Notes: generated by a model from the letters alone, not told the origin. A DNA stretch of 64,000 nt from Pleurocapsa minor GSE-CHR-MK 17-07R (GCA_019359125.1 JAHHHY010000006.1:210030-274029), one strand, 5' to 3'; counted from the first letter of the stretch, positions 2,676 to 22,482 are shown. Program-made: numbers and translations.

Positions 2676-2722
2676 ACCACCGTCCGCGCCGCTGCCGCCA
2701 CCGTCACGCCGGGTGGTGCACA
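2676..2722. repeat. Direct repeat A1 (47 bp), partner at 4720-4767
   Basis: ACCACCGTCCGCGCCGCTGCCGCCACCG-TCACGCCGGGTGGTGCACA; 42 of 48 aligned columns identical to the copy at 4720. Confidence 0.85.
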
Positions 2723-2770: not shown

Positions 2771-4654
2771 TCAGTGAAGCAGCCCCCAATTGACGGGCGT
2801 ATCCGGCTTCTCCGTCGGGAAGTCGTACAGGGCAGATTCAGCACGAGGTGGCAGCGACTCGCCCACTCCCGTGATGGACGCCGGCTCATAACCCGCAGCA
2901 GGGACGGGAAGCTGTTCAAGCAAGCGTGGGCCCTGTTCCTCGTCGAATGTGAACACAACCAGATTCTGGTAGGGGATGGTGCGCTCACTGAGTACAAACT
3001 TCGTCCATCGGGTATAGAAGCCGTTTTCAGTGAACGCACATGCTTCGCGGAAGTAGCCGAACGTTTCGGCTCCTGGCACGCAGAACGCGGCGTCCAGGGT
3101 CGGGTTGGCGTACAGATAGCGCACCGCGCCGATCAACATGTCACGGCGATTCTCAAACTCCAGCATTGCACGGCGCTCGGGCGATTCATCCAGCAGCACG
3201 ATCAGTGTGCCATCAGCCGGGCGCGGAGCCTGTTCGATAATTGCGCTGAGTATCCAGTGCTGGCCGCGAGGTGCTTCAGCGTAGAGACTATGCTGCCAAA
3301 GCGTGAATGAGGCGTGCCCACCCATCAGTACACCGAACCCCAGCAGGAACAACCAGCGGGTAGAGACAAAGAGGGCTAACAGGCCGCCAAGTACGAGGGC
3401 CAGCTTGCCTAGGCGCGGAGCAATAATGAGAGCAACGATCAGCGCGCCAGCGGCTGTCGCACGGCGCACCCACTTGCCGCCATAGCTGACGATAAGGAGT
3501 GCCATGCCGAAGACGAGCGCGCTGCCCGCCGCCGAGAAGTAGTAAACGCGGTAATCGACATCACGGTACTCACTGACAAGGTAGCCTGCAAAACCCAGCC
3601 CGATGAGCGCGAACCCGGCGAGGCTCGCCGTGACGACTTCGCGCCAGCGTAGGACGGGAGGCCGCCGACGCAGACTGTACCAGACCGCGCCAACAGACAC
3701 GCCGCTGATGGCGCCGGCATAGGGAAGGAAAGGCAACGTTTCGCGCCAGTAGGTATAGCGGTCGAGAAATGCGCCGCCCAGCAACCGCTTGTAGATGCGG
3801 AACACGCTGTTGGCCATGTCCCGCAGGGGAGACTCAGAAGCAAGCGCTGTGGTGAACTGACCGCTTTGATAGAGCTGGTTTTGCGTCGCCACAACAATAC
3901 CATAGCGGGCAAGCAGAATTATGGGGACGACATACCACAGACCTGCTGTTATCCAGACGCGGCGGTTGAAGCGGCCTGCAATCAGGGGGAGCAGCATCGG
4001 CGCCGCAAAGATGATAGGGAACGCAGCCTCATAGGTCATTGCTAAAGCCTGTGAGATGCCTACCGCGACCCACAGCCAACGTGCCGGACGACGAAACTGC
4101 CGTAGGAATAGCCAGATAGCCACAAACGTCCACAGCCCTGACCACGCGATGCTATGGGTTCCTAACCAGAACCAGCCTAGATCTGCATAGAAGACCGTGT
4201 AGAGTAAAGCTGAGGCCGAAGCGACTACACGCGCGGAGGGAAGCAGTTCACCGATGACGAGATAAAGCGCGAAGCCTCGTGCCAGTAGCAGCGCGGCAAA
4301 GACGAGGTTGATACCCACGTGTGAGTCGGGAGTGAGCAGGTAGCCCAGATGTTGAAACGCGGTGACGAAGGGGCGGAGGCTGCTTGGATCGAGTGAGATA
4401 TTGCTTCCAACAAAATCACCTAGTAGAACCCATTCATCACTTAGACCTGACACATTCCAGCCAAAGGGCAGCCAGAGCAGGACAATCACGGCGCTGAGGG
4501 CTGCGAGGGTAATCAGGTCTAGCTGGTGGACGGATGCCCAAACACGAATACGAGGCATCAGGCCATGGTACATCTGATGAATTACGTTAGACACAACACC
4601 CACACAAAATATTCTAAACATTGCCTGAAATAATACACGTAGCTTAGCTAGCAA
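2771..4654 (-). CDS. Polytopic membrane protein with C-terminal extracytoplasmic domain, GT-C/GtrII-like glycosyltransferase candidate
   Basis: About 12 hydrophobic segments, early SGLSDEW acidic loop, soluble C-terminal domain. Visibly lower GC than neighbours. Start uncertain (later ATGs possible). Confidence 0.6.
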   Translation of the reverse strand: MLAKLRVLFQAMFRIFCVGVVSNVIHQMYHGLMPRIRVWASVHQLDLITLAALSAVIVLLWLPFGWNVSGLSDEWVLLGDFVGSNISLDPSSLRPFVTAFQHLGYLLTPDSHVGINLVFAALLLARGFALYLVIGELLPSARVVASASALLYTVFYADLGWFWLGTHSIAWSGLWTFVAIWLFLRQFRRPARWLWVAVGISQALAMTYEAAFPIIFAAPMLLPLIAGRFNRRVWITAGLWYVVPIILLARYGIVVATQNQLYQSGQFTTALASESPLRDMANSVFRIYKRLLGGAFLDRYTYWRETLPFLPYAGAISGVSVGAVWYSLRRRPPVLRWREVVTASLAGFALIGLGFAGYLVSEYRDVDYRVYYFSAAGSALVFGMALLIVSYGGKWVRRATAAGALIVALIIAPRLGKLALVLGGLLALFVSTRWLFLLGFGVLMGGHASFTLWQHSLYAEAPRGQHWILSAIIEQAPRPADGTLIVLLDESPERRAMLEFENRRDMLIGAVRYLYANPTLDAAFCVPGAETFGYFREACAFTENGFYTRWTKFVLSERTIPYQNLVVFTFDEEQGPRLLEQLPVPAAGYEPASITGVGESLPPRAESALYDFPTEKPDTPVNWGLLH

Positions 4655-4719
4655 CTCAATACCTTCGTGAAGCTTTCAAGGATTGATGTCTAATTACCTC
4701 ATGAGCGAGAAACCTGCCA

Positions 4720-4767
4720 ACCACCGTCCGCGTCGCTGTCGCCAACGCTCATGCGGGGTGGTGCACA
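4720..4767. repeat. Direct repeat A2 (48 bp)
   Basis: ACCACCGTCCGCGTCGCTGTCGCCAACGCTCATGCGGGGTGGTGCACA; internal ACCACC...GGTGGT inverted ends. Confidence 0.85.
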
Positions 4768-4858: not shown

Positions 4859-7486
4859 ATGAAGCGCAGTCACGAGCAGCTCAGACTTCAGGAAGCACGG
4901 GACGGGAAAGCGCGCTGGCGGCAGTGGGGACCGTATCTGAGCGAACGGGCGTGGGGAACCGTGCGCGAAGACTACAGCGCCGATGGCGAGGCGTGGGGGT
5001 TCCTCCCGCACGACCAGGCGCGCAGCAAGGCCTATCGCTGGGGCGAAGACGGGCTGGCGGGCATCAGCGACGAGCGCCAGTACCTGTGCTTTGCGCTGGC
5101 GCTGTGGAACGGGCACGACCCGATCCTGAAAGAGCGCGCTTTCGGCCTGGCCGGAGGGGAAGGCAATCACGGGGAAGACGTCAAGGAATACTATTTTTAC
5201 CGCGACAGCACGCCCACGCACAGCTATATGAAGCTGCTCTACAAATATCCACAGCGGGCCTTTCCGTATCAGGCGCTGATTGAAGAAAGCCGCCGACGCG
5301 GGTTTCACGACGCAGAATTTGAACTGCTGGACACCGGCATCTTCGACGATGACCGCTATTTCGATGTCACGGTCGAATACGCCAAGGCTGCGCCTGATGA
5401 CATCCTCGTCCGCATCACAATCGCGAACCGGGCCGCTCAGTCCGCCGACCTGACGGTGCTGCCCACGCTGTGGTTCCGCAATACCTGGTCGTGGGGCTAC
5501 GACGCCGGGCCGATGAACGATGTGCCGCGCAAACCGGCGCTCAGCCTGCGCGGTCCGCAGGAAATCGTGGCCGATCATCCCGTGCTGGGGACGTATACGC
5601 TGGCCACCGGGGCCGCCGACGAGATCATCTTCACCGAGAACGAGACCAATGCCGAGCGCCTGTATGGCGCGCCCAACGCGGGCCCGTATGTGAAAGATGC
5701 CTTCCACGCCTGTATCGTCCATGGGCGGCGCGAGGCGGTCAACCCGGCGCATACGGGTACCAAAGCAGCGGCTGTATATAGGTTGCATCTTCAGGCTGGC
5801 GAGACGCGGACGCTTTCGCTGCGGCTGTCTGGCCGGGACGTGGCGGAGCCATTCGCCGGATTTGACGGCGTATTTGACGAACGCGTGCACGAGGCTGACC
5901 AGTTCTACGCTGACCTTCACGGCGCGTCCCTCAGCCCGGACCAGCAGAACGTGCAGCGGCAGGCGCTGGCCGGCATGCTGTGGAGCAAGCAGTTGTATTA
6001 CTACGACGTGGAACAATGGCTGGCTGGCGACCCGATCGCCGCACCGCCGCCGCAGCGCAGGCACGGGCGTAATCACCAGTGGGAGCATCTCAACAACTTC
6101 GATATCGTCTCGATGCCCGACAAATGGGAGTATCCGTGGTATGCCGGCTGGGATCTGGCGTTTCACTGCCTGCCGCTGGCTGTTGCCGACCCCGACTTTG
6201 CCAAGGCGCAGTTACTGCTGCTCACGCGCGAATGGTACATGCATCCCAACGGACAGCTTCCCGCCTACGAGTGGGCGTTTGGCGATGTCAATCCTCCCGT
6301 GCATGCATGGGCAGCCTGGAAGGTGTATGAACTGGATGGCAAGCAGGACAGCGCCTTCCTCAAGCGCGTGTTCAACAAGATGCTGCTCAATTTCACCTGG
6401 TGGGTGAATCGCAAGGATGCCGAGGGGCGCAATATCTTTCAGGGCGGCTTCCTGGGGCTGGACAACATCAGCCTGTTTGACCGCAGCCGGGCGCTGCCCG
6501 CGGGCGGCGAGCTGGACCAGAGCGACGGCACCGCGTGGATGGGCTTTTTCTGCCTGACGATGATGAATATCGCGCTGGAGCTGGCGACCAGCGATGCTGC
6601 CTACGAAGACATGGCGATCAAGTTTTACGAGCATTTCCTGTGGATCGCGCGCGCTGTGAGCGGGGAAACACGCGGCGGCGTGGGGCTGTGGGACGAGACG
6701 GACGGGTTCTATTACGATGTGCTGCGCTCGGCCGACGGGGGCGTGCATCCGCTGAAAGTGCGTTCGCTGGTGGGGCTGATGCCGCTGATCGCGGTCGAAA
6801 CGGTCGGCCAGGAGACGCTGGACCGTTTCCCTGGATTTGCGCGCAGCATCGCCTGGCTGCGCCGTCATCGCCCGGATCTGGCGGAGAACATGGCCAGTGT
6901 TGAAGTGCCGGGCTATGGCAGCGCGCACCTGTTTGCCATGCCGGACCGCGAGCGCCTGCGCCGGATGCTGCACTATCTGCTGCACGAGGACGAATTCCTG
7001 TCGCCGTATGGCATCCGCTCGTTATCGAAAGCCCACACGACGCCTTATGAGCTGCATTTTGGTGCAGAGCTGTTCAGCGTGCGCTATACCGCCGCCGAGT
7101 CGGACAGCGGCCTGTTTGGCGGCAATTCCAACTGGCGCGGCCCGATCTGGTTTCCCATCAACTATCTGTTCATCGAGGCGCTGCGAAAATATCACCGCTA
7201 TTATGGCGATGCGTTTCGCGTGGAATGCCCCACCGGAAGCGGCGTCATGATGACGCTGAGCCAGGTGGCAGACGAGCTTTCTGCGCGGCTGACGCGCATT
7301 TTCCTGCGCGATGGGTCCGGCCGCCGTCCGGTTTATGCCGGGGCAGAGCGCTTCCAGACCGATCCGCACTGGCGCGATCACCTGCTGTTCTACGAGTATT
7401 TTCATGGTGATGACGGGGCAGGACTGGGCGCCAGCCATCAAACCGGCTGGACGGGCCTGGTCGCCATGCTGATGCAGGGGCTATGA
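4859..7486 (+). CDS. Glycoside hydrolase family 63 (MGH1-like glucosidase)
   Basis: [58 protein letters not shown]. Confidence 0.9.
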
Positions 7487-7513
7487 AGGTTGCGTAACGC
7501 GAGGCCCACCCGG

Positions 7514-7567
7514 ATTGATTCCCGACCGCCCGAAGTCCGATGCTATGGAGGCAGTATATGACGAGGC
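7514..7567 (+). repeat. Direct repeat B1 (54 bp), contains RBS and start codon of the following gene
   Basis: ATTGATTCCCGACCGCCCGAAGTCCGATGCTATGGAGGCAGTATATGACGAGGC; 52/54 identical to 8888-8941; GGAGG then 6 nt then ATG at 7558. Confidence 0.95.
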
Positions 7568-8892
7568 CGCTTATCGGGTCCCTTACTGTGGTCTTGCTCT
7601 GTCTGATGCTGAGCCTGAGCGCGGCGGCGCAGGCGTCAGACGAGACGGTGCTGGTGGCCACGCCGACCGTGGATGGCATCGACATCTATTCAGCCGACAG
7701 CAGCGGGGAAGTCACGCTGGTGCACAGCCTGAACGGGTTTCGTGTCGGCGATCCCATCGATCAGGATTCCTGGTTCATGAGTCGTTACACGGATTTAACT
7801 GTCTCGCTGGATGGGTCGCAGATTGCCTTCACGGCGCAGCGTGACGGTGCGTGGGCTTTATTCGTCTATACCCGCGCGACCGATGCGCTGCTTGAAATCG
7901 CGCTTCCAGAAGAACTCAGTATCCCTATTTGGTCGCCGGATGGAACCTCAATGCTGCTAACAGCGGGGGCTTCGGCACCACCGTTGAGCGATTATGTGTA
8001 TGATTTACAAACGCAGGAGCTGAACCAAATTACCAGCGTGCCACAGTTCAGAGAGAACAGTTTTCACTGGATGCCAGATAGTACAGGGTTATTCTACGTT
8101 GGCTACTGCGAAACCTGTCTACCGGTAAGTCAAGCGCTTTACCAGGTAAGTCGTGATGGAAGTGAGACGACGCGCTTGGCAGTTGCATCTGTGCTGGCGC
8201 CATCAGACTCGGTAGCCTCTATATGCCATCCGACTTGGTCGGAGCCAAATCATCGGATCTATTTTGTCATTGGATGTGTCGGTGGGGGTGGCCAGTCAAA
8301 CGAGTATCTCTACTCTGTCGACTTGGCAGGAAACGTCCGTGCGGAGCTCAGCGGTGGTTTCAACTCCCTATACTCAGATGAATACAATGTCAGGACGATA
8401 AACATTCATCCAAGCCCATTTTCGGACCAAATCTACATCACGCTAGCTTCACAAGGTGGCGATAGTACTGGTCTTTCAAATCGACGTATTCTTCATTTTC
8501 AAGCTCCCGATATTGTGAACATCGTGTATGAACAAACTCAACAAGACGAAGCGATAACGTCCTCATCAATGTCTCCAAACGGCGCAGCTATTGCCTTAGT
8601 CACCTATGGCAGAGGCACCAGTAACGGTTATCTCGAAGTGATCGACGTAACAACAGAGGAACGTATCGTTGGGCAAGGTACAACGCCTTCAGATGTTTGT
8701 GATGTGTTTTGGTCGGATGAGGACACGCTTTTTTACACGGTGGACCCGACAGGGGCATGCGATGTGGCGCGGGCACCCCAAAGTGTCTGGGTGCTGGACA
8801 TAACCAGCGGCGCTACTCAGGAAGTGACCAGCGAGCTGGGCGCGAATGTGTGGATGCTGCGGCGCGTGGTCGTCACAGCGCCCCTTAATTGA
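7558..8892 (+). CDS. Secreted TolB-like/PD40 beta-propeller protein
   Basis: Signal peptide (MTRPLIGSLTVVLLCLMLSLSAAAQA); blades VSLDGSQIAF, PIWSPDG, FHWMPDS, PTWSEP, SMSPNG, VFWSDE; low-GC interior. Confidence 0.8.
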   Translation: MTRPLIGSLTVVLLCLMLSLSAAAQASDETVLVATPTVDGIDIYSADSSGEVTLVHSLNGFRVGDPIDQDSWFMSRYTDLTVSLDGSQIAFTAQRDGAWALFVYTRATDALLEIALPEELSIPIWSPDGTSMLLTAGASAPPLSDYVYDLQTQELNQITSVPQFRENSFHWMPDSTGLFYVGYCETCLPVSQALYQVSRDGSETTRLAVASVLAPSDSVASICHPTWSEPNHRIYFVIGCVGGGGQSNEYLYSVDLAGNVRAELSGGFNSLYSDEYNVRTINIHPSPFSDQIYITLASQGGDSTGLSNRRILHFQAPDIVNIVYEQTQQDEAITSSSMSPNGAAIALVTYGRGTSNGYLEVIDVTTEERIVGQGTTPSDVCDVFWSDEDTLFYTVDPTGACDVARAPQSVWVLDITSGATQEVTSELGANVWMLRRVVVTAPLN

Positions 8893-8941
8893 TTCCCGAC
8901 CGACCGAAGTCCGATGCTATGGAGGCAGTGTATGACGAGGC
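8888..8941 (+). repeat. Direct repeat B2 (54 bp), contains the stop codon of the preceding gene
   Basis: ATTGATTCCCGACCGACCGAAGTCCGATGCTATGGAGGCAGTGTATGACGAGGC; TGA at 8890-8892. Confidence 0.95.
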
Positions 8942-8977
8942 GGTTTGCCTGGCCCAACCAAAGAAGTGGATCTGCCT

Positions 8978-9652
8978 ATGATCAGCGATGACCAGTTTGA
9001 CCGGGTGCTCCAGACGCTGCCCTTCCTGCGGCAGGCGGATGCCCGCGTCGTCACCGACTTTAAGCGCATGGCGTTTGTCGCCCATATTCCCGCTGGCAAA
9101 GATGTGTTTGTCGAGGGCGACGAGGTGCAGGCGATTGCGCTGCTGATGTCTGGTGCCGTGCGCGTGTACAAGATCGGGGAAACCGGACGCGAAATCACCC
9201 TGTATCGGTTTGGATTTGGCGAGTCGTGTATTTTAACTGCCAATGCCATTCTCTCCCGGCAGTTGTTTTCGGCCATCGCCACGGTGGATCAGGATGCGGA
9301 AGCGATCATGATTCCCGCAGAGTCATTCCGCGAGTGGGTGCAGCGCCACGATTTCTGGCGCGACTTCGTGTTCACGATTCTCTCGCAGCGGCTGTCCCGC
9401 CTCATGGAAATCGTCGATGAAGTGGTCTTTCAGCGCATGGATGCGCGCGTCGCGGCGCTGCTGCACGAGCGCGGCAAGACACATAATCCAATCAGCGGAA
9501 CCCATCAGGAAATTGCGGCTGAGCTGGGCAGCTCGCGCGAGGTCATCAGCCGCATCCTGGAAAATCTGGCCCGGCAGGGGATGATTCGCGTGCTGCGCGG
9601 TTCGATTGAAATTCTGGACGCTGATTTACTGGAAAAACAAACGACTCGGTGA
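8978..9652 (+). CDS. Crp/Fnr family transcriptional regulator
   Basis: cNMP-like domain (VRVYKIGETGREITLYRFGFGESC) and C-terminal HTH (THQEIAAELGSSREVISRIL). Confidence 0.9.
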   Translation: MISDDQFDRVLQTLPFLRQADARVVTDFKRMAFVAHIPAGKDVFVEGDEVQAIALLMSGAVRVYKIGETGREITLYRFGFGESCILTANAILSRQLFSAIATVDQDAEAIMIPAESFREWVQRHDFWRDFVFTILSQRLSRLMEIVDEVVFQRMDARVAALLHERGKTHNPISGTHQEIAAELGSSREVISRILENLARQGMIRVLRGSIEILDADLLEKQTTR

Positions 9653-15100: not shown

Positions 15101-18100
15101 GCTGACGCCGACTGCGACCGAAGACCCGCGCGTCGTGACGATCTGCCATGTGGCGGGCCGTGCCGATGACCCGGCCAACTGGGTCATCCTGACGCTGCCG
15201 TACCAGGCTGTGTTTGCGAACGCGCAGGGCAATGGTGGTCACTTCTTCGAGAACGGGACGCCGCTGGCAGGCCACGAACAGGACTTCATCATCAACAGTC
15301 CTGCCGACGCCGCACGCTGCGCACCGCCGACGCCAGTGCCGAGCGAGACGCCGACCAGCACTTCGACGAATACGCCGAGCAGCACGCCGACGAACACCGC
15401 GACCAACACGCCCACGGCGACCGCGACGAATACCGCGACCAACACGCCGACGAGCACGCCGACGAATACGCCGACGGAAACGCCGAGCGAGACGCCGACC
15501 AATACGCCGACGAATACGCCGACGAATACGCCAACCAACACGCCGACGAATACGGCGACGCCGGACACGCGCTTCGTGACGATCTGCCATGTGGCGGGCC
15601 GTGCGGAAGACCCGGCCAACTGGGTCGTGCTGACGCTGCCGTATCAGGCTGTCTACGCCAACGCGCAGGGCAACGGTGGTCACTTCTTTGAAAACGGGAC
15701 GCCGCTGGCTGGCCACGAACAGGACTTCATCATCAATGGTCCTGAAGACCTGGCACGCTGCGCGCCGCCCGCGACGCTGACCCCGACGCCGACGGAAACG
15801 CCGACGGAAACGCCGACGAATACGCCGACGAACACGCTCACCCCGTCGAACACGCCGACCGGCACGCAAACGCCGTCGAACACGCCGACTGAGACGCTGA
15901 CGCCGACGAATACGCCGACGAACACGCCGACGAATACGCTGACGCCGACTGCGACCGAAGACCCGCGCGTCGTGACGATCTGCCATGTGGCAGGCCGTGC
16001 CGATGACCCGGCCAACTGGGTCATCCTGACGCTGCCGTACCAGGCTGTGTTTGCGAACGCCCAGGGCAATGGTGGTCACTTCTTCGAGAACGGCACGCCG
16101 CTGGCCGGCCACGAACAAGACTTCATCATCAACAGTCCTGCCGATGCCGCACGCTGCGCGCCGCCGCCGACGGCTACCCCGACGCCGACGAATACGCCGA
16201 CGAATACGTCGACCAACACGCCGACGTCGACCAATACGCCGACTGCGACGCCAACGTCGACCAACACGCCGACGAACACGCCGACGAGCACGCCGACGAA
16301 TACCGCGACGAACACGCCAACGTCGACCAACACGCCGACCGCGACGAATACGCCGACGAGCACGCCGACGAATACGCTGACGCCGACTGCGACCGAAGAC
16401 CCGCGTTTCGTGACGATCTGCCATGTGGCAGGCCGTGCGGATGACCCGGCCAACTGGGTCGTGCTGACGCTGCCGTATCAGGCCGTGTACGCGAATGCGC
16501 AGGGCAATGGTGGCCACTTCTTCGAGAATGGGACGCCGCTGGCTGGCCACGAACAGGACTTCATCATCAACGGTCCTGAAGACCTGGCACGCTGCGCGCC
16601 GCCGCCGACCGCGACGCCGACGCCAAGCAACACGCCGACGAATACGCCGACCAACACCGCGACCAATACGCCGACGAACACGCCGACGAATACCGCGACC
16701 AATACGCCGACGAATACGCCGACGCCGACCGAGACGTTGACGCCAACGAACACGCCGACCGGCACGCAGACGCCGTCGAACACGCCGACTGAGACGCTGA
16801 CCCCGACGAATACGCCGACGAATACCAACACGCCGACGAATACGCCGACCAACACGTCTACGCCGACGCCGACGAACACGCCGACCAATACGCTGACGCC
16901 GACGCCGACCGAAGACCCGCGCGTCTACACGATCTGCCATGTGGCGGGCCGTGCCGATGATCCTGCCAACTGGGTCATCCTGACGCTGCCGTACCAGGCT
17001 GTGTTTGCGAATGCGCAGGGCAATGGTGGCCACTTCTTCGAGAACGGCACGCCGACCGCGGGTCACGAGCAGGACTTCATCATCAACAGCCCTGCCGACT
17101 ACGCACGCTGCGCGCCGCCGCCGACGGTGACCCCAACGCCGACTGAAACGCCGACGAATACGCCGACGAATACGCCGACGAACACGCCGACGAACACGCC
17201 GACGAACACGCCGACGAATACGCCGACCGAGACGCCGACGAATACGCCGACCGAGACGCCGACCAATACGCCGACCAACACGCCGACCGAGACGCCGACG
17301 AACACGCCGACGAACACGCCGACCAATACGCCGACCAACACGCCGACGAACACGCCGACCGAGACGCCGACGAATACGCCGACGAATACGCCGACCGAGA
17401 CGCCGACCGAAACGCCGACGAATACGCCGACGAATACGCCGACGAACACGCCGACCGAGACGCCGACGAATACGCCGACCGAGACGCCGACGAATACGCC
17501 GACCGAGACGCCGACGCCGACCATCACACCGACGCTGACGCCGACGACGACAGCAACGCAGCCCGTGGGACCGATCAACCTGTCTCATATGTACTGCGTG
17601 ACGCCTGAGACGCCGCAGCTCGAAGTCCACTTTGTGGTCACACAGCCAGGGGATGGTAACGAGTTTGGTTCGCTGACCTACGAGATCAACGGCGAGAGCC
17701 GCACGATCGCAGGGCCGGAGGATTCGAACGCGGCGATCATCCACTACTACGACTACCTGACGCTGGGCCCGGTGGGCACGACGTACACGGTGCCGTTTGG
17801 CAGTGTGATGATTAACGGTGTGCCATTCGGTGTGCAGAATCTGCCGTATGACTACGTCGTGTCGGAGGACTGCTTCCCGCCGCCGTCGTTGACAGGCGCA
17901 GGCATCTGCACGCGCCCGGGTAACCTGCAGTTCTCGGTGACCAACAACGGCCAGACGACATCGCTGCCAGTGGCATTCGTCATCCTGGGCCCCAACGGCC
18001 AGTTCGCGGATGGCACGGTGCCTGCACTGACATCGGGCCAGACTGCTGACTTCCCGTACAGCGGCGCTGCCCCCGGCACCTACTCCTTCTTCACTGAAGA

Positions 18101-19970: not shown

Positions 19971-19976
19971 CTGGTG

Positions 19977-20049
19977 TGTGCCTGGAGAGATTCGAACCCC
20001 CGACTTTCTGCTCCGTAGGCAGACGCTCTATCCGCTGAGCTACAGGCAC
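19977..20049 (-). tRNA. tRNA-Arg (anticodon ACG)
   Basis: GTGCCTG/CAGGCAC acceptor stem, TAGCTCAGCGGATAGAGC D arm, TCTGC-CTACGGA-GCAGA anticodon arm, GGTTCGAATC T loop. CCA is not encoded directly after the discriminator. Confidence 0.97.
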
Positions 20050-20647: not shown

Positions 20648-21703
20648 CTACGAACGGCCTGCTGCGCGCCGCTGCGCTGCGTCATCCTGGGCGAATGAAT
20701 CCTGGTCGCCCAGCAGATCCTCCAGCGAGACGCGCTCAAACAGGTCAGTTTCTTCCAGGCGCGCGCGCACTTCCGCATGAATTTCGCCATCGCTGGTGAC
20801 CGCCTGCTGAATCTTTTCGCGGCGCGTCTCGCCCCACTGCCAGCTATGCTCCACCAGCAGCACGGTGTCAGCATACACGCGCAGCTTCCACGGCCCGGAA
20901 AAATTGAACGAATCGAGCACTTTCAGCCGCGATGATGGGCTGACGAGGTGTTCGCCGCGCCCCAGCGACACCAGCGTGTCGTGCATGAACAGTTTCTGCC
21001 CATCGGGATCGATCAGCTCAAAGCGAATCAGCCCGTGCGCCTCACGCGCCAGATGCAGGCGCACATACGGCTGCAGCGAGTCGGCATCCCGCGTGATGGC
21101 CTGATCGCGCACCAGCGACAGCGCACCGTCAGACATGACCTTGAAGCCCAGGTCGATGGGGATGACTGCCGCCTGTGCATCCAGCCCGGCGGCGCTGGCC
21201 GCCCGCAGCGCGTGCGTATAGGCCGCCACGCCATTGTCCAGGATGAGCGTGTCCGGCCTGCGGCTGGGCCCGCCCGGCCGAAAAGATGGATTAGCTTGGG
21301 GGCGAGAGGGCGTCTCCATCGGGAAGCGCGTGGAGGGCGCGCTGGGCTGGCCATAGCGCGGCGCATACTGCTCACGCGACTGCATGTCCGGCCTGCTGTC
21401 GGGCATCTGGCTTTGCGCGCTTTCAATCACCTCGCGCACCACCTCAGCGCCGCCGCGCAGCAGGCGCGGAATGGCCGCCATCATGCGCATATACCAGCGC
21501 TGCCGATGCGCGCGGTAAAAAGCCATCGCGCTGCCCAGCATGAAGAACAGGCCCGCGATGACCACGAACAGGCTGACCATCATACCGGCGAAGCCGTCGC
21601 TGGCGGCGATCATGCCCAATGAAAACAGGGCGACCAGCGCCCCGATGGCCATGCCGGCCAGGTAATGCCGACCGCGCAGGCGCACGCGCCCGAATCGGTT
21701 CAT
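20648..21703 (-). CDS. Hypothetical membrane-anchored protein (paralog of the adjacent gene)
   Basis: 2 N-terminal TM segments, Pro/Arg linker, beta-rich domain (IRFELIDPDGQKLFMH...WKLRV), SLEDLL tail. Confidence 0.7.
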   Translation of the reverse strand: MNRFGRVRLRGRHYLAGMAIGALVALFSLGMIAASDGFAGMMVSLFVVIAGLFFMLGSAMAFYRAHRQRWYMRMMAAIPRLLRGGAEVVREVIESAQSQMPDSRPDMQSREQYAPRYGQPSAPSTRFPMETPSRPQANPSFRPGGPSRRPDTLILDNGVAAYTHALRAASAAGLDAQAAVIPIDLGFKVMSDGALSLVRDQAITRDADSLQPYVRLHLAREAHGLIRFELIDPDGQKLFMHDTLVSLGRGEHLVSPSSRLKVLDSFNFSGPWKLRVYADTVLLVEHSWQWGETRREKIQQAVTSDGEIHAEVRARLEETDLFERVSLEDLLGDQDSFAQDDAAQRRAAGRS

Positions 21704-22482
21704 CGGCGATCCCGGCGATTATCCTCGGACTGTCCGCGCAGCAGGTCCTCCAGGCTGAGGGGCTGGTCGGCATCCTGCTGAGACAGGCGGGCGCGGCTGT
21801 CAGACACGCTGGCCGGGGCGCGGCGGGCGCGCTCGAAGCGGTTGGACAGCGAGGGTGTCACGCGAAATACATGCTCGCCAATCATGCGCCCGTCGATCGA
21901 GACGCGCAGGTCCCAGTCGCCAGGCTCAAATTCCTCGGCACCCGCTGCCAGCGGCAGGTGATGATCGGCCAGCAGGTCGGTCTCGCCAGCGCGCAGGTAG
22001 GGGCGCATCTCGTGCACAAAACGCGTTTTGCCCATGCCGTCGCGCAGCTCAAAGCGGATCAGCGCGCGGCGTTCGGCGCCGTTGGGCAGCACGCTCAGCG
22101 AGATAAACGGGCGCACGCCCTCATCGTCCAGCGAGACATCGCGCGTGCGGCGCATGTTGACGCCGTATTCGCCGGTCTGCATGGCGATCATGCCGATGTC
22201 CATCAGCGTCAGGTCGGGGCTGGCATAGCTGCCGCCCGATTTGGCGCGCACCGCGGCTTCCCGCGCCTCGGCGGTCATGCGCACAGCGGCCAGCGACGAA
22301 CGCGAACGCTCCAGTAACTGCGACGGGCGCGCATTCATCAGGCTGAAGCCGATGGCCGCCGCCAGCAGCGCCACCAGCGCCAGCGGGACGAGGATGTTAG
22401 GGGCACTTCCTGACAACACTGCCACGACGACCGATACGCCGAGCAGGGACAGCCAGGGCACCATAGTTGTGCGAAACCGCAT
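21700..22482 (-). CDS. Hypothetical membrane-anchored protein (paralog of the adjacent gene)
   Basis: 2 TM segments, IRFELRDGMGKTRFVH...WDLRV, SLEDLL tail; 4-bp overlap with the next gene. Confidence 0.7.
   Translation of the reverse strand: MRFRTTMVPWLSLLGVSVVVAVLSGSAPNILVPLALVALLAAAIGFSLMNARPSQLLERSRSSLAAVRMTAEAREAAVRAKSGGSYASPDLTLMDIGMIAMQTGEYGVNMRRTRDVSLDDEGVRPFISLSVLPNGAERRALIRFELRDGMGKTRFVHEMRPYLRAGETDLLADHHLPLAAGAEEFEPGDWDLRVSIDGRMIGEHVFRVTPSLSNRFERARRAPASVSDSRARLSQQDADQPLSLEDLLRGQSEDNRRDRR

Follow-up and report, generated by a model that had tools for sequence, protein, structure and literature searches.

A locus-unique 54-bp direct repeat around a predicted β-propeller gene: a possible scar of tandem duplication in a genome with recurrent repeat-bounded single genes

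In the 64,000-nt stretch of DNA analysed here (the window; GCA_019359125.1 JAHHHY010000006.1:210030-274029, filed under Pleurocapsa minor GSE-CHR-MK 17-07R), a gene for a predicted secreted β-propeller, which we call X, is bracketed by two copies of a 54-bp direct repeat, such that the left copy supplies the ribosome-binding site (RBS) and start codon of the gene and the right copy its stop codon. We tentatively read this repeat as the junction scar of a local duplicative rearrangement, in which X and its leader would have been duplicated in tandem and the second copy nearly all deleted; we assign this reading a probability of about 0.45. The window belongs to contig C13 of a draft genome (G000; 4.85 Mb, 23 contigs), probably a metagenome-assembled genome (MAG), which we place in the Anaerolineae; the relatives of X are also encoded by Anaerolineae MAGs. 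Positions below are those of the window unless a contig of this genome (C1, C5 and so on) is named.

The two copies (7514-7567 and 8888-8941) are identical at 52 of 54 positions and lie 1374 bp apart, start to start; no comparable pair appeared in 100 dinucleotide-preserving shuffles. Mismatches at repeat positions 16 and 43 leave perfectly matching blocks of 15, 26 and 11 nt, over which RecA exchange would be marginal. A weaker similarity adds 14 nt to the repeat, up to 7581/8955 (68 nt, 88%), the divergence being 2 of 54 positions within the 54-mer vs 6 in the next 15 nt. The boundary sequences are CCCGG/ATTGATT on the left and CCTTA/ATTGATT on the right. In the left copy, GGAGG (7547-7551) is followed after 6 nt by the ATG at 7558; in the right copy, a TGA (8890-8892) lies 3 nt inside; and, as 1374 equals 458 × 3, both copies share one frame. 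These figures reproduce those of the initial annotation, which had also pointed out, correctly, that the unit is a leader plus one open reading frame (ORF) and that recombination between the copies would formally yield a 1374-bp circle carrying the intact ORF and its RBS.

The same annotation had allowed for an artefact. The genome is indeed a 23-contig draft, probably a MAG; however, two contigs from elsewhere, one of 380 kb from JGI and one of 15 kb from Logan, are 100% identical to it over the locus (8.7-12.7 kb), down to the two positions at which the copies differ. Because two other assemblies match and the repeat is much shorter than a single read, the probability of an assembly or binning artefact is close to nil.

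The sequence of 7514-7567 recurs head-to-tail at 8888-8941, right after X-derived sequence, and the C-terminus of X is trimmed exactly at this joint (8887/8888). When X was aligned with five homologues, it was found to end in VVVTAPLN, at least 4 residues earlier than its relatives (which end in VVVTSPVFSRSM and VVVTSPIVVTPTP), and the homology ceases at the joint. Beyond it, the RBS and ATG (8932) of the right copy open just 19 codons, ending 14 nt inside crp, the downstream gene for a Crp/FNR-family regulator. This short ORF matches codons 4-8 of X at 9 of 15 nt, as expected of a 5′ remnant, and shows no similarity beyond (chance P about 0.015). We read it as what is left of a deleted second copy of X, the alternative being a native leader ORF of crp.

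In X, the GC content at third codon positions (GC3) is 0.85-0.88 over codons 1-60, above that of every homologue, then falls gradually to 0.28 at codons 281-340 and is 0.75 in the last 40 codons; this profile showed no composition break at the left repeat boundary. The leader and the 5′ end of X therefore look co-resident. The inner GC is 0.535, vs 0.607-0.620 in the flanks, and the low-GC core sits far within the unit that the repeats delimit. We favour tandem duplication followed by deletion because the repeat at this locus is the RBS and start of X itself rather than the end of a neighbour, because no composition break occurs there, and because the right copy opens a stub ORF.

The history could have run as follows. 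X, with its own leader (RBS and ATG), would have stood between a gene for a GH63-type glycoside hydrolase and crp; it would have been of foreign origin and later partly overwritten by a lower-GC allele. Tandem duplication of 7514-8887, with the joint a few codons before the native end of X, would have made copy 1 read across the joint as far as the first in-frame stop that the duplicated leader offers (TGA 8890-8892). Deletion of the second copy except its first 54-68 nt (leader, RBS, ATG and 4-9 codons) would then have fused the remnant to the sequence before crp, giving the 19-codon ORF that overlaps the crp start. At present, the left copy drives the translation of X; the right copy terminates it and may pass ribosomes on to crp. 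Recombination between the copies by RecA, with loss of X, is possible in principle but would be inefficient. The locus directly displays a unique and unstructured repeat, the composition profile, a C-terminus of X cut short and a remnant ORF; from these we infer the tandem intermediate and the order of events.

Intact tandem gene pairs or arrays with near-identical leaders and gene ends are found in the same genome (C16:182751/183392, C5:396-398 kb and C15:35-52 kb). The closest analogue is a decayed one, C6:10205/11170, where 16 codons of an FGE-like 3′ end survive in the left copy and a 15-codon 5′ stub in the right one. A comparable 128-nt junction repeat links successive propeller genes beside an X homologue in another metagenome. 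As at known tandem duplication joints, the start of the unit at the X locus reappears head-to-tail after its end, the joint changes the ORF, the second copy persists as a 5′ stub and intact pairs with shared leaders occur elsewhere in the genome; unlike at those joints, the residual homology beyond 54 nt is marginal and a two-copy intermediate was not observed. The assignment of the X locus to this class rests on composition and on two analogous loci.

In the C15 array (C15:35500-52300, L092), at least 6 copies of a junction module (175-240 nt) lie between variable gene bodies of lower GC. About 58 conserved C-terminal codons, the stop, an RBS and the beginning of a signal peptide make up the module, and the array encodes secreted paralogues with conserved ends and variable middles.

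Several points weigh against tandem duplication and deletion. This history needs two events, and the 9/15 residual similarity of the stub could be due to chance. No relative with the two-copy intermediate or with a single-copy state was found among the congeners or at 52 metagenomic crp loci. The N-terminus of X (MTRP, then the hydrophobic core) is the shortest in the alignment, all five homologues carrying 5-9 extra residues that end in a conserved Trp, missing from X; this would fit an in-frame fusion of a 5′-trimmed foreign fragment to a resident start codon. Finally, several clear insertion loci of this genome are bounded by duplicated native sequence, which means that insertion with target duplication operates in it.

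The corresponding reading of the X locus, namely an insertion accompanied by long target duplication, or an equivalent event of Campbell-type or homology-facilitated illegitimate recombination, we consider unlikely but rank second, as the main rival. The 54-mer would be native intergenic or leader sequence before crp, and a foreign fragment of X lacking start and stop would have been placed after the fourth codon of a small leader ORF, with 54 bp duplicated on both sides; X would then be an in-frame fusion translated from the resident RBS and ATG and terminated within the second copy. The expected empty site would contain GH63, a single 54-mer with GGTTTGCCTGG directly after it, and crp, with no X. 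The main support for such an event comes from the trimmed N-terminus (X is in fact trimmed at both ends with respect to its homologues) and from genome-wide precedent: at least 10 more loci here have lower-GC single genes inside unique 34-122 bp repeats of native sequence, in excess of chance expectation (see below), and the neighbouring PMT_2 gene has the same architecture. Moreover, X is rare, patchily distributed and below its flanks in GC in every genome that carries it. However, the first 60 codons past the supposed joint have a native-like GC3, whereas low GC sets in no more than 100 nt away from the repeat at the clear insertion loci. In addition, the target must already have held a strong RBS and an ATG opening 19 codons, and the fragment must have landed in frame. 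Capture at a staggered break by nonhomologous end joining was disfavoured, as no Ku gene was found in the genome.

We also considered the mirror event, in which a donor with X upstream of the 54-mer and crp would have undergone homologous exchange in crp and an illegitimate joint at 7567/7568. This model was disfavoured because the right copy opens a 19-codon ORF and no real gene, and the same holds at C6:10205/11170.

An empty site or another allele was sought by exact-protein look-ups of crp, GH63 and X and by a metagenome scan with crp, which returned only the identical structure or distant orthologues with unrelated neighbours. No close relative of the host was present in any collection searched; the congeners show 60-66% protein identity and lack the GH63-crp synteny.

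Campbell-type insertion-duplication and homology-facilitated illegitimate recombination were reportedly described by de Vries and Wackernagel in 2002 and by Prudhomme et al. in 2002, and a long target duplication around restriction-modification (RM) genes is said to have been described by Nobusato et al. in 2000, earlier than the study considered next. Furuta, Abe and Kobayashi (2010; PMC2853133) reported long, variable, unique direct repeats around inserted RM genes with no mobility gene. In those cases, for each of which a sister strain provides an empty site, the repeats extend over gene ends, the composition of the insert is atypical and a gene fusion sometimes results, so that the fusion proposed for X has a published precedent. 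The X locus shares with them the unique, locus-specific direct repeat of >30 bp, the short insert (<20 kb) without a mobility gene and copies that are a few percent diverged; it differs in that its cargo is a secreted propeller, in that the composition break lies off the repeat boundary and in that no empty site was found in the collections searched. Touzain (2010; PMC2884548) found 10-18% of small variable segments to be repeat-flanked and discussed homology-assisted illegitimate recombination.

In these schemes, one homologous exchange in a short shared segment, or one such exchange combined with an illegitimate joint, leaves that segment on both sides of the foreign DNA, which fits the other loci of this genome, whose copies of 3′ ends differ mainly at synonymous sites. 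However, such recombination has been shown experimentally only in naturally transformable model bacteria, and the segment at the X locus is mostly non-coding. The X locus would be another case of the known long-target-duplication kind, or a plain duplication scar.

The genome-wide precedent is as follows. In a self-comparison, short high-identity repeats 0.8-7 kb apart were direct in 47 cases and inverted in 6, an eightfold difference, the orientations being equal at larger distances. Of 84 clean local repeat pairs, 15 surround DNA whose GC falls short of that of the flanks by 0.07 or more, vs 1.8 expected from 20,000 random segments; likewise, 12 of 303 low-GC islets have flanking repeats scoring ≥25, vs a maximum of 17 in shuffled pairings. 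At the clean loci (Table 1), each repeat is unique to its locus, 34-122 bp long and made of native sequence (gene 3′ end, terminator or leader), most commonly the native upstream gene's 3′ end, reaching 0-8 nt past its stop, or a terminator. Low GC starts ≤100 nt from the repeat at six loci. The cargo of C19:36407/37788 is absent from >40 congeners that keep the flanking gene order; when C13:151762/153558 was compared with relatives, only the conserved flanking gene matched. One more candidate, C14:2719/3902, was rejected: its repeat is a dispersed REP-like (repetitive extragenic palindromic) element with many copies.

Five loci (C1:9923, C12:60502, C19:36407, C5:243153 and C5:110807) have 3′-end repeats, all ending 0-8 nt after the stop codon. 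The differences between their copies are distributed over the codon positions as 8:4:24 and affect 23 synonymous vs 8 non-synonymous codons, while decay in situ would give about 0.44 at position 3 (P about 0.005). Because the third-position bias exceeds in-situ decay, it is suggested that the second copy diverged while coding, in another lineage. Judged by these patterns of substitution, the five loci seem to fit staggered-cut fill-in less well than Campbell-type integration or one homologous exchange combined with an illegitimate joint. This suggests that recombination with a related lineage's DNA, rather than target duplication in situ or a transposase or integrase, brought in their units.

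By itself, the X locus is an ordinary rearrangement scar from which little can be learned; the recurrent pattern, about a dozen repeat-bounded lower-GC units in one genome without Ku and with almost no integrases, is more interesting. Long target duplications have been published since 2000 without a mechanism, mostly for RM systems, so that a genome with many non-RM examples and with cargo abutting the distal repeat is a good place for mechanistic work.

The initial annotation compared the locus to an integron cassette. Its remarks that the site is not an attC and that no integrase lies nearby both stood: no attC-like imperfect inverted repeat or terminal inverted repeat was detected at or near the copies, folding did not exceed that of shuffled controls (z = +1.95 for 7487-7581 and +0.87 for 8861-8990, against 200 shuffles), and matches to the tyrosine recombinase family PF00589 occur solely at C19:146986-147531 and, below threshold, on C22. 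The cassette logic itself was not supported. The annotation had set against it the prospect of a 54-mer confined to this site, and confined it is: the genome holds two copies, both at X, the 26-nt core has no match with ≤3 mismatches in 52 congeners, and no exact match was found in 185,000 species genomes. Nor was the 54-mer, or any comparable flanking repeat, present at the homologue loci fetched from other Anaerolineae MAGs. The locus is not an integron-like system. Like X, integron cassettes consist of one promoterless ORF plus a short site, and their circular form is a complete unit; unlike them, the X locus has no attC, IntI, array or second occurrence of its site, and the G/TTRRRY core is absent from its boundaries, while real cassettes share just a 7-bp core as a direct repeat. 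The presence of the start and stop inside the repeat is explained more simply, since the left copy is the leader of the gene and the right copy is the junction at which a 3′-trimmed ORF runs to the first stop.

Other mobile elements fare no better. The hallmarks of insertion sequences, miniature inverted-repeat transposable elements (MITEs) and transposons (terminal inverted repeats, a short fixed target duplication, a transposase, many copies) were not seen at the locus. Islands inserted in gene 3′ ends, such as e14 in icd and those that target tRNA genes, carry a substitute end. Like these, the X locus has imperfect direct repeats bracketing foreign DNA; unlike them, it has no integrase in or near the unit and its insert is a single gene, and its repeat is not the 3′ end of a tRNA or other gene, beginning instead 27 nt past the GH63 stop. 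A tRNA-linked island was rejected, as the only tRNA (Arg, 19976-20049) shares nothing with the repeat.

A true mobile single-gene cassette of some other type seems very improbable. Here the mobile form would be a 1374-bp circle (gene plus 39-nt spacer), the chromosomal form would be slightly longer than the unit, with the repeat as its terminal redundancy, and excision and re-integration would proceed through the repeat by means of host RecA or a recombinase acting in trans. The unit is indeed exactly an ORF plus spacer, whose circle would have the ORF preceded by its RBS, and the context of X differs in every genome. At 12 loci the cargo ORF lies close against the distal repeat, the gap having a median of 7 nt (range -47 to +132) vs 112 nt on the proximal, upstream side; at five of them, X and four others, the ORF enters the repeat and stops there. 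The unit at C6:10205/11170 is even ORF-exact, with an ATGA stop/start overlap. A hypothetical life cycle of this sort (invade, amplify, release) was proposed by Kobayashi's group for repeat-flanked RM genes (PMC2853133). However, the 54-mer has no other copy in the collections searched, X homologues lack a related flanking repeat, and no recombinase, structured site or inverted repeats were found; no stretch of perfect identity exceeds 26 nt, a circle of 1.4 kb would have no replication or transfer function, and X is absent from viral contigs. More broadly, the lineage may acquire and exchange single genes for surface proteins (secreted PD40/WD40 propellers, SH3b proteins, GT-C glycosyltransferases) as ORF-tight units that leave as small circles and enter related genomes through host homologous recombination, without a recombinase of their own; every unit would bring along, or generate, a copy (34-122 bp) of adjacent native sequence, and the X locus would be one such unit. 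We regard this as improbable, but, if true, it would extend the RM life cycle of Kobayashi's group to ordinary cargo.

The repeat could instead be a regulatory leader (promoter, operator or 5′ untranslated region) copied before a second gene so as to bring X and crp under common control, a form of 'promoter propagation' that we consider very improbable. Consistent with it, one copy precedes X and the other crp, RBS and ATG are conserved, the divergence is lower within the 54-mer than in the next 15 nt, and the PMT_2 locus likewise has a repeat copy before each of two successive genes. However, we found no sigma-70-like promoter or terminator in 7300-9200, no Rfam family at the repeat and no fold. 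Among 52 metagenomic crp orthologues (51-81% identity; full-length matches at most 75% at the amino acid level), the crp start is conserved but all the upstream regions are unrelated to the repeat. Furthermore, this reading would leave unexplained why one copy starts 2 nt ahead of the X stop.

As to the nature of X, the initial annotation had called it a secreted β-propeller, and the predictions agree. X gives a PD40 match of 24.5 bits (Pfam cut-off 20.9), and its AlphaFold2 model (mean pLDDT, the predicted local distance difference test score, 80.5) is an all-β propeller with a hydrophobic N-terminal helix at residues 7-20, resembling the propellers of TolB and prolyl endopeptidase. A search of 5.8 billion proteins yielded five relatives and the 185,000 species genomes the remainder of six in total (37-61% identity), making a family of 7 members with X, and all are on Anaerolineae-type contigs. 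At the six homologue loci the neighbours differ each time and the GC of the gene is below that of its flanks, indicating that X moves horizontally. No relatives turned up in viral contigs, and a phage origin was rejected on that ground.

Some homologue loci have repeats of their own. At L015 (G021:C115), in the only congener with an X homologue, this gene and another low-GC gene sit side by side in a 3-kb island of low GC. A repeat of 25-36 nt (L015:1-36 / 1492-1526) stands upstream of both island genes, the contig beginning inside it, and a 51-nt tandem duplication (L015:1329-1379 / 1405-1455) covers the stop codon of the first gene. The 128-nt repeat mentioned above (L028:3405-3532 and 4547-4674, 87.5%; ENA ERZ27296357 k141_385978) comprises the last 75 nt of one propeller gene, a spacer and the first 42 nt of the next, and occurs twice in a row of propeller genes; its second copy opens a 33-codon ORF, directly followed by a gene for 462 amino acids. 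The only full-length paralogue of X in its own genome (C12:63278-64690, minus strand, 26% identity) adjoins the repeat-bounded locus C12:60502/63131.

Table 1. Features of the X locus and its surroundings, and repeat-bounded loci elsewhere in the genome (window positions unless a contig is given)
Feature	Position	Strand	Remarks
GH63 / MGH1-like glycoside hydrolase, native upstream gene, 875 aa	4859..7486	+	GC3 0.78; Pfam PF22422 3.5e-26, PF03200
Left 54-bp copy	7514..7567	+	in-frame TGA 7516-7518, GGAGG 7547-7551, ATG 7558, first 3.3 codons of X
X, cargo gene, predicted secreted or membrane-anchored PD40-type β-propeller, 444 aa	7558..8892	+	
Low-GC core of X	7900..8700	+	GC 0.44-0.54 vs 0.60-0.65 in flanks; ~340 nt / ~190 nt inside repeat boundaries
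Right 54-bp copy	8888..8941	+	stop of X (8890-8892), second GGAGG, ATG 8932; joint with X-derived sequence 8887/8888
19-codon ORF, MTRRFAWPNQRSGSAYDQR, from ATG of right copy	8932..8991	+	overlaps crp start by 14 nt
crp, Crp/FNR-family regulator, native downstream gene, 224 aa	8978..9652	+	Pfam PF13545, PF00027, PF00325
Second repeat, left copy	2676..2722		44 nt upstream of minus-strand GFO_IDH_MocA-type oxidoreductase gene 1583-2632
Second repeat, right copy	4720..4767		upstream of minus-strand PMT_2-like GT-C glycosyltransferase gene 2771-4573/4654
Clean locus	C19:36407/37788		
Clean locus	C13:151762/153558		
Clean locus	C16:165302/166595		
Clean locus	C5:110807/114395		
Clean locus	C5:237703/238844		
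Clean locus	C5:243153/244444		
Clean locus	C1:9923/11649		
Clean locus	C12:60502/63131		
Clean locus	C6:10205/11170		
Clean locus	window 2676/4720		
Further locus	C19:165349/166394		
Further locus	C13:119923/121775		
Cargo: secreted WD40/PD40 propellers			four loci, five with X
Cargo: SH3b proteins			four loci, two of them also propeller loci
Cargo: PMT_2-like glycosyltransferases			two
Cargo: FGE-like protein			
Cargo: HSDR_N-type nuclease-like protein			
Cargo: protein of unknown family			one

In the congeners, GH63 orthologues (60-66% amino acid identity) have other downstream neighbours. In one of them (L016, G016:C54), GH63 is followed within 1.6 kb by orthologues of window positions 20756-22389. 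The stretch of about 13 kb between window positions 7487 and ~20700, with the propeller gene, crp, a gene for a 2505-aa surface protein and the tRNA-Arg gene, is therefore lineage-specific.

The second repeat of the window (about 48 bp, 42/48 identical with one gap) is unrelated to the 54-mer. The architecture of this PMT_2 locus is like that of the propeller locus, with one repeat copy before the cargo gene and one before the next gene, that for the oxidoreductase.

Elsewhere in the genome, a 48-nt direct repeat resembling a tRNA 3′ end (GGTTCGAATCC T-arm; C20:13780-13827 and 15629-15677) surrounds a 1.85-kb islet, where a PF00589 integrase was looked for and not detected. Many copies of a dispersed REP/MITE-like element, about 85 nt long (CCTCACCCCGTTTCGCTGCGCTCAACCGCCCCTCTCC...GGAGAGGGGCAAAAACCC...), are spread over many contigs (e.g., C14:2719, C14:3902, C13:184135, C13:239538 and C3:20669), and a second dispersed element (GCCGCCTGCGGTTCAAAACCGCAGGC...) also occurs in this genome.

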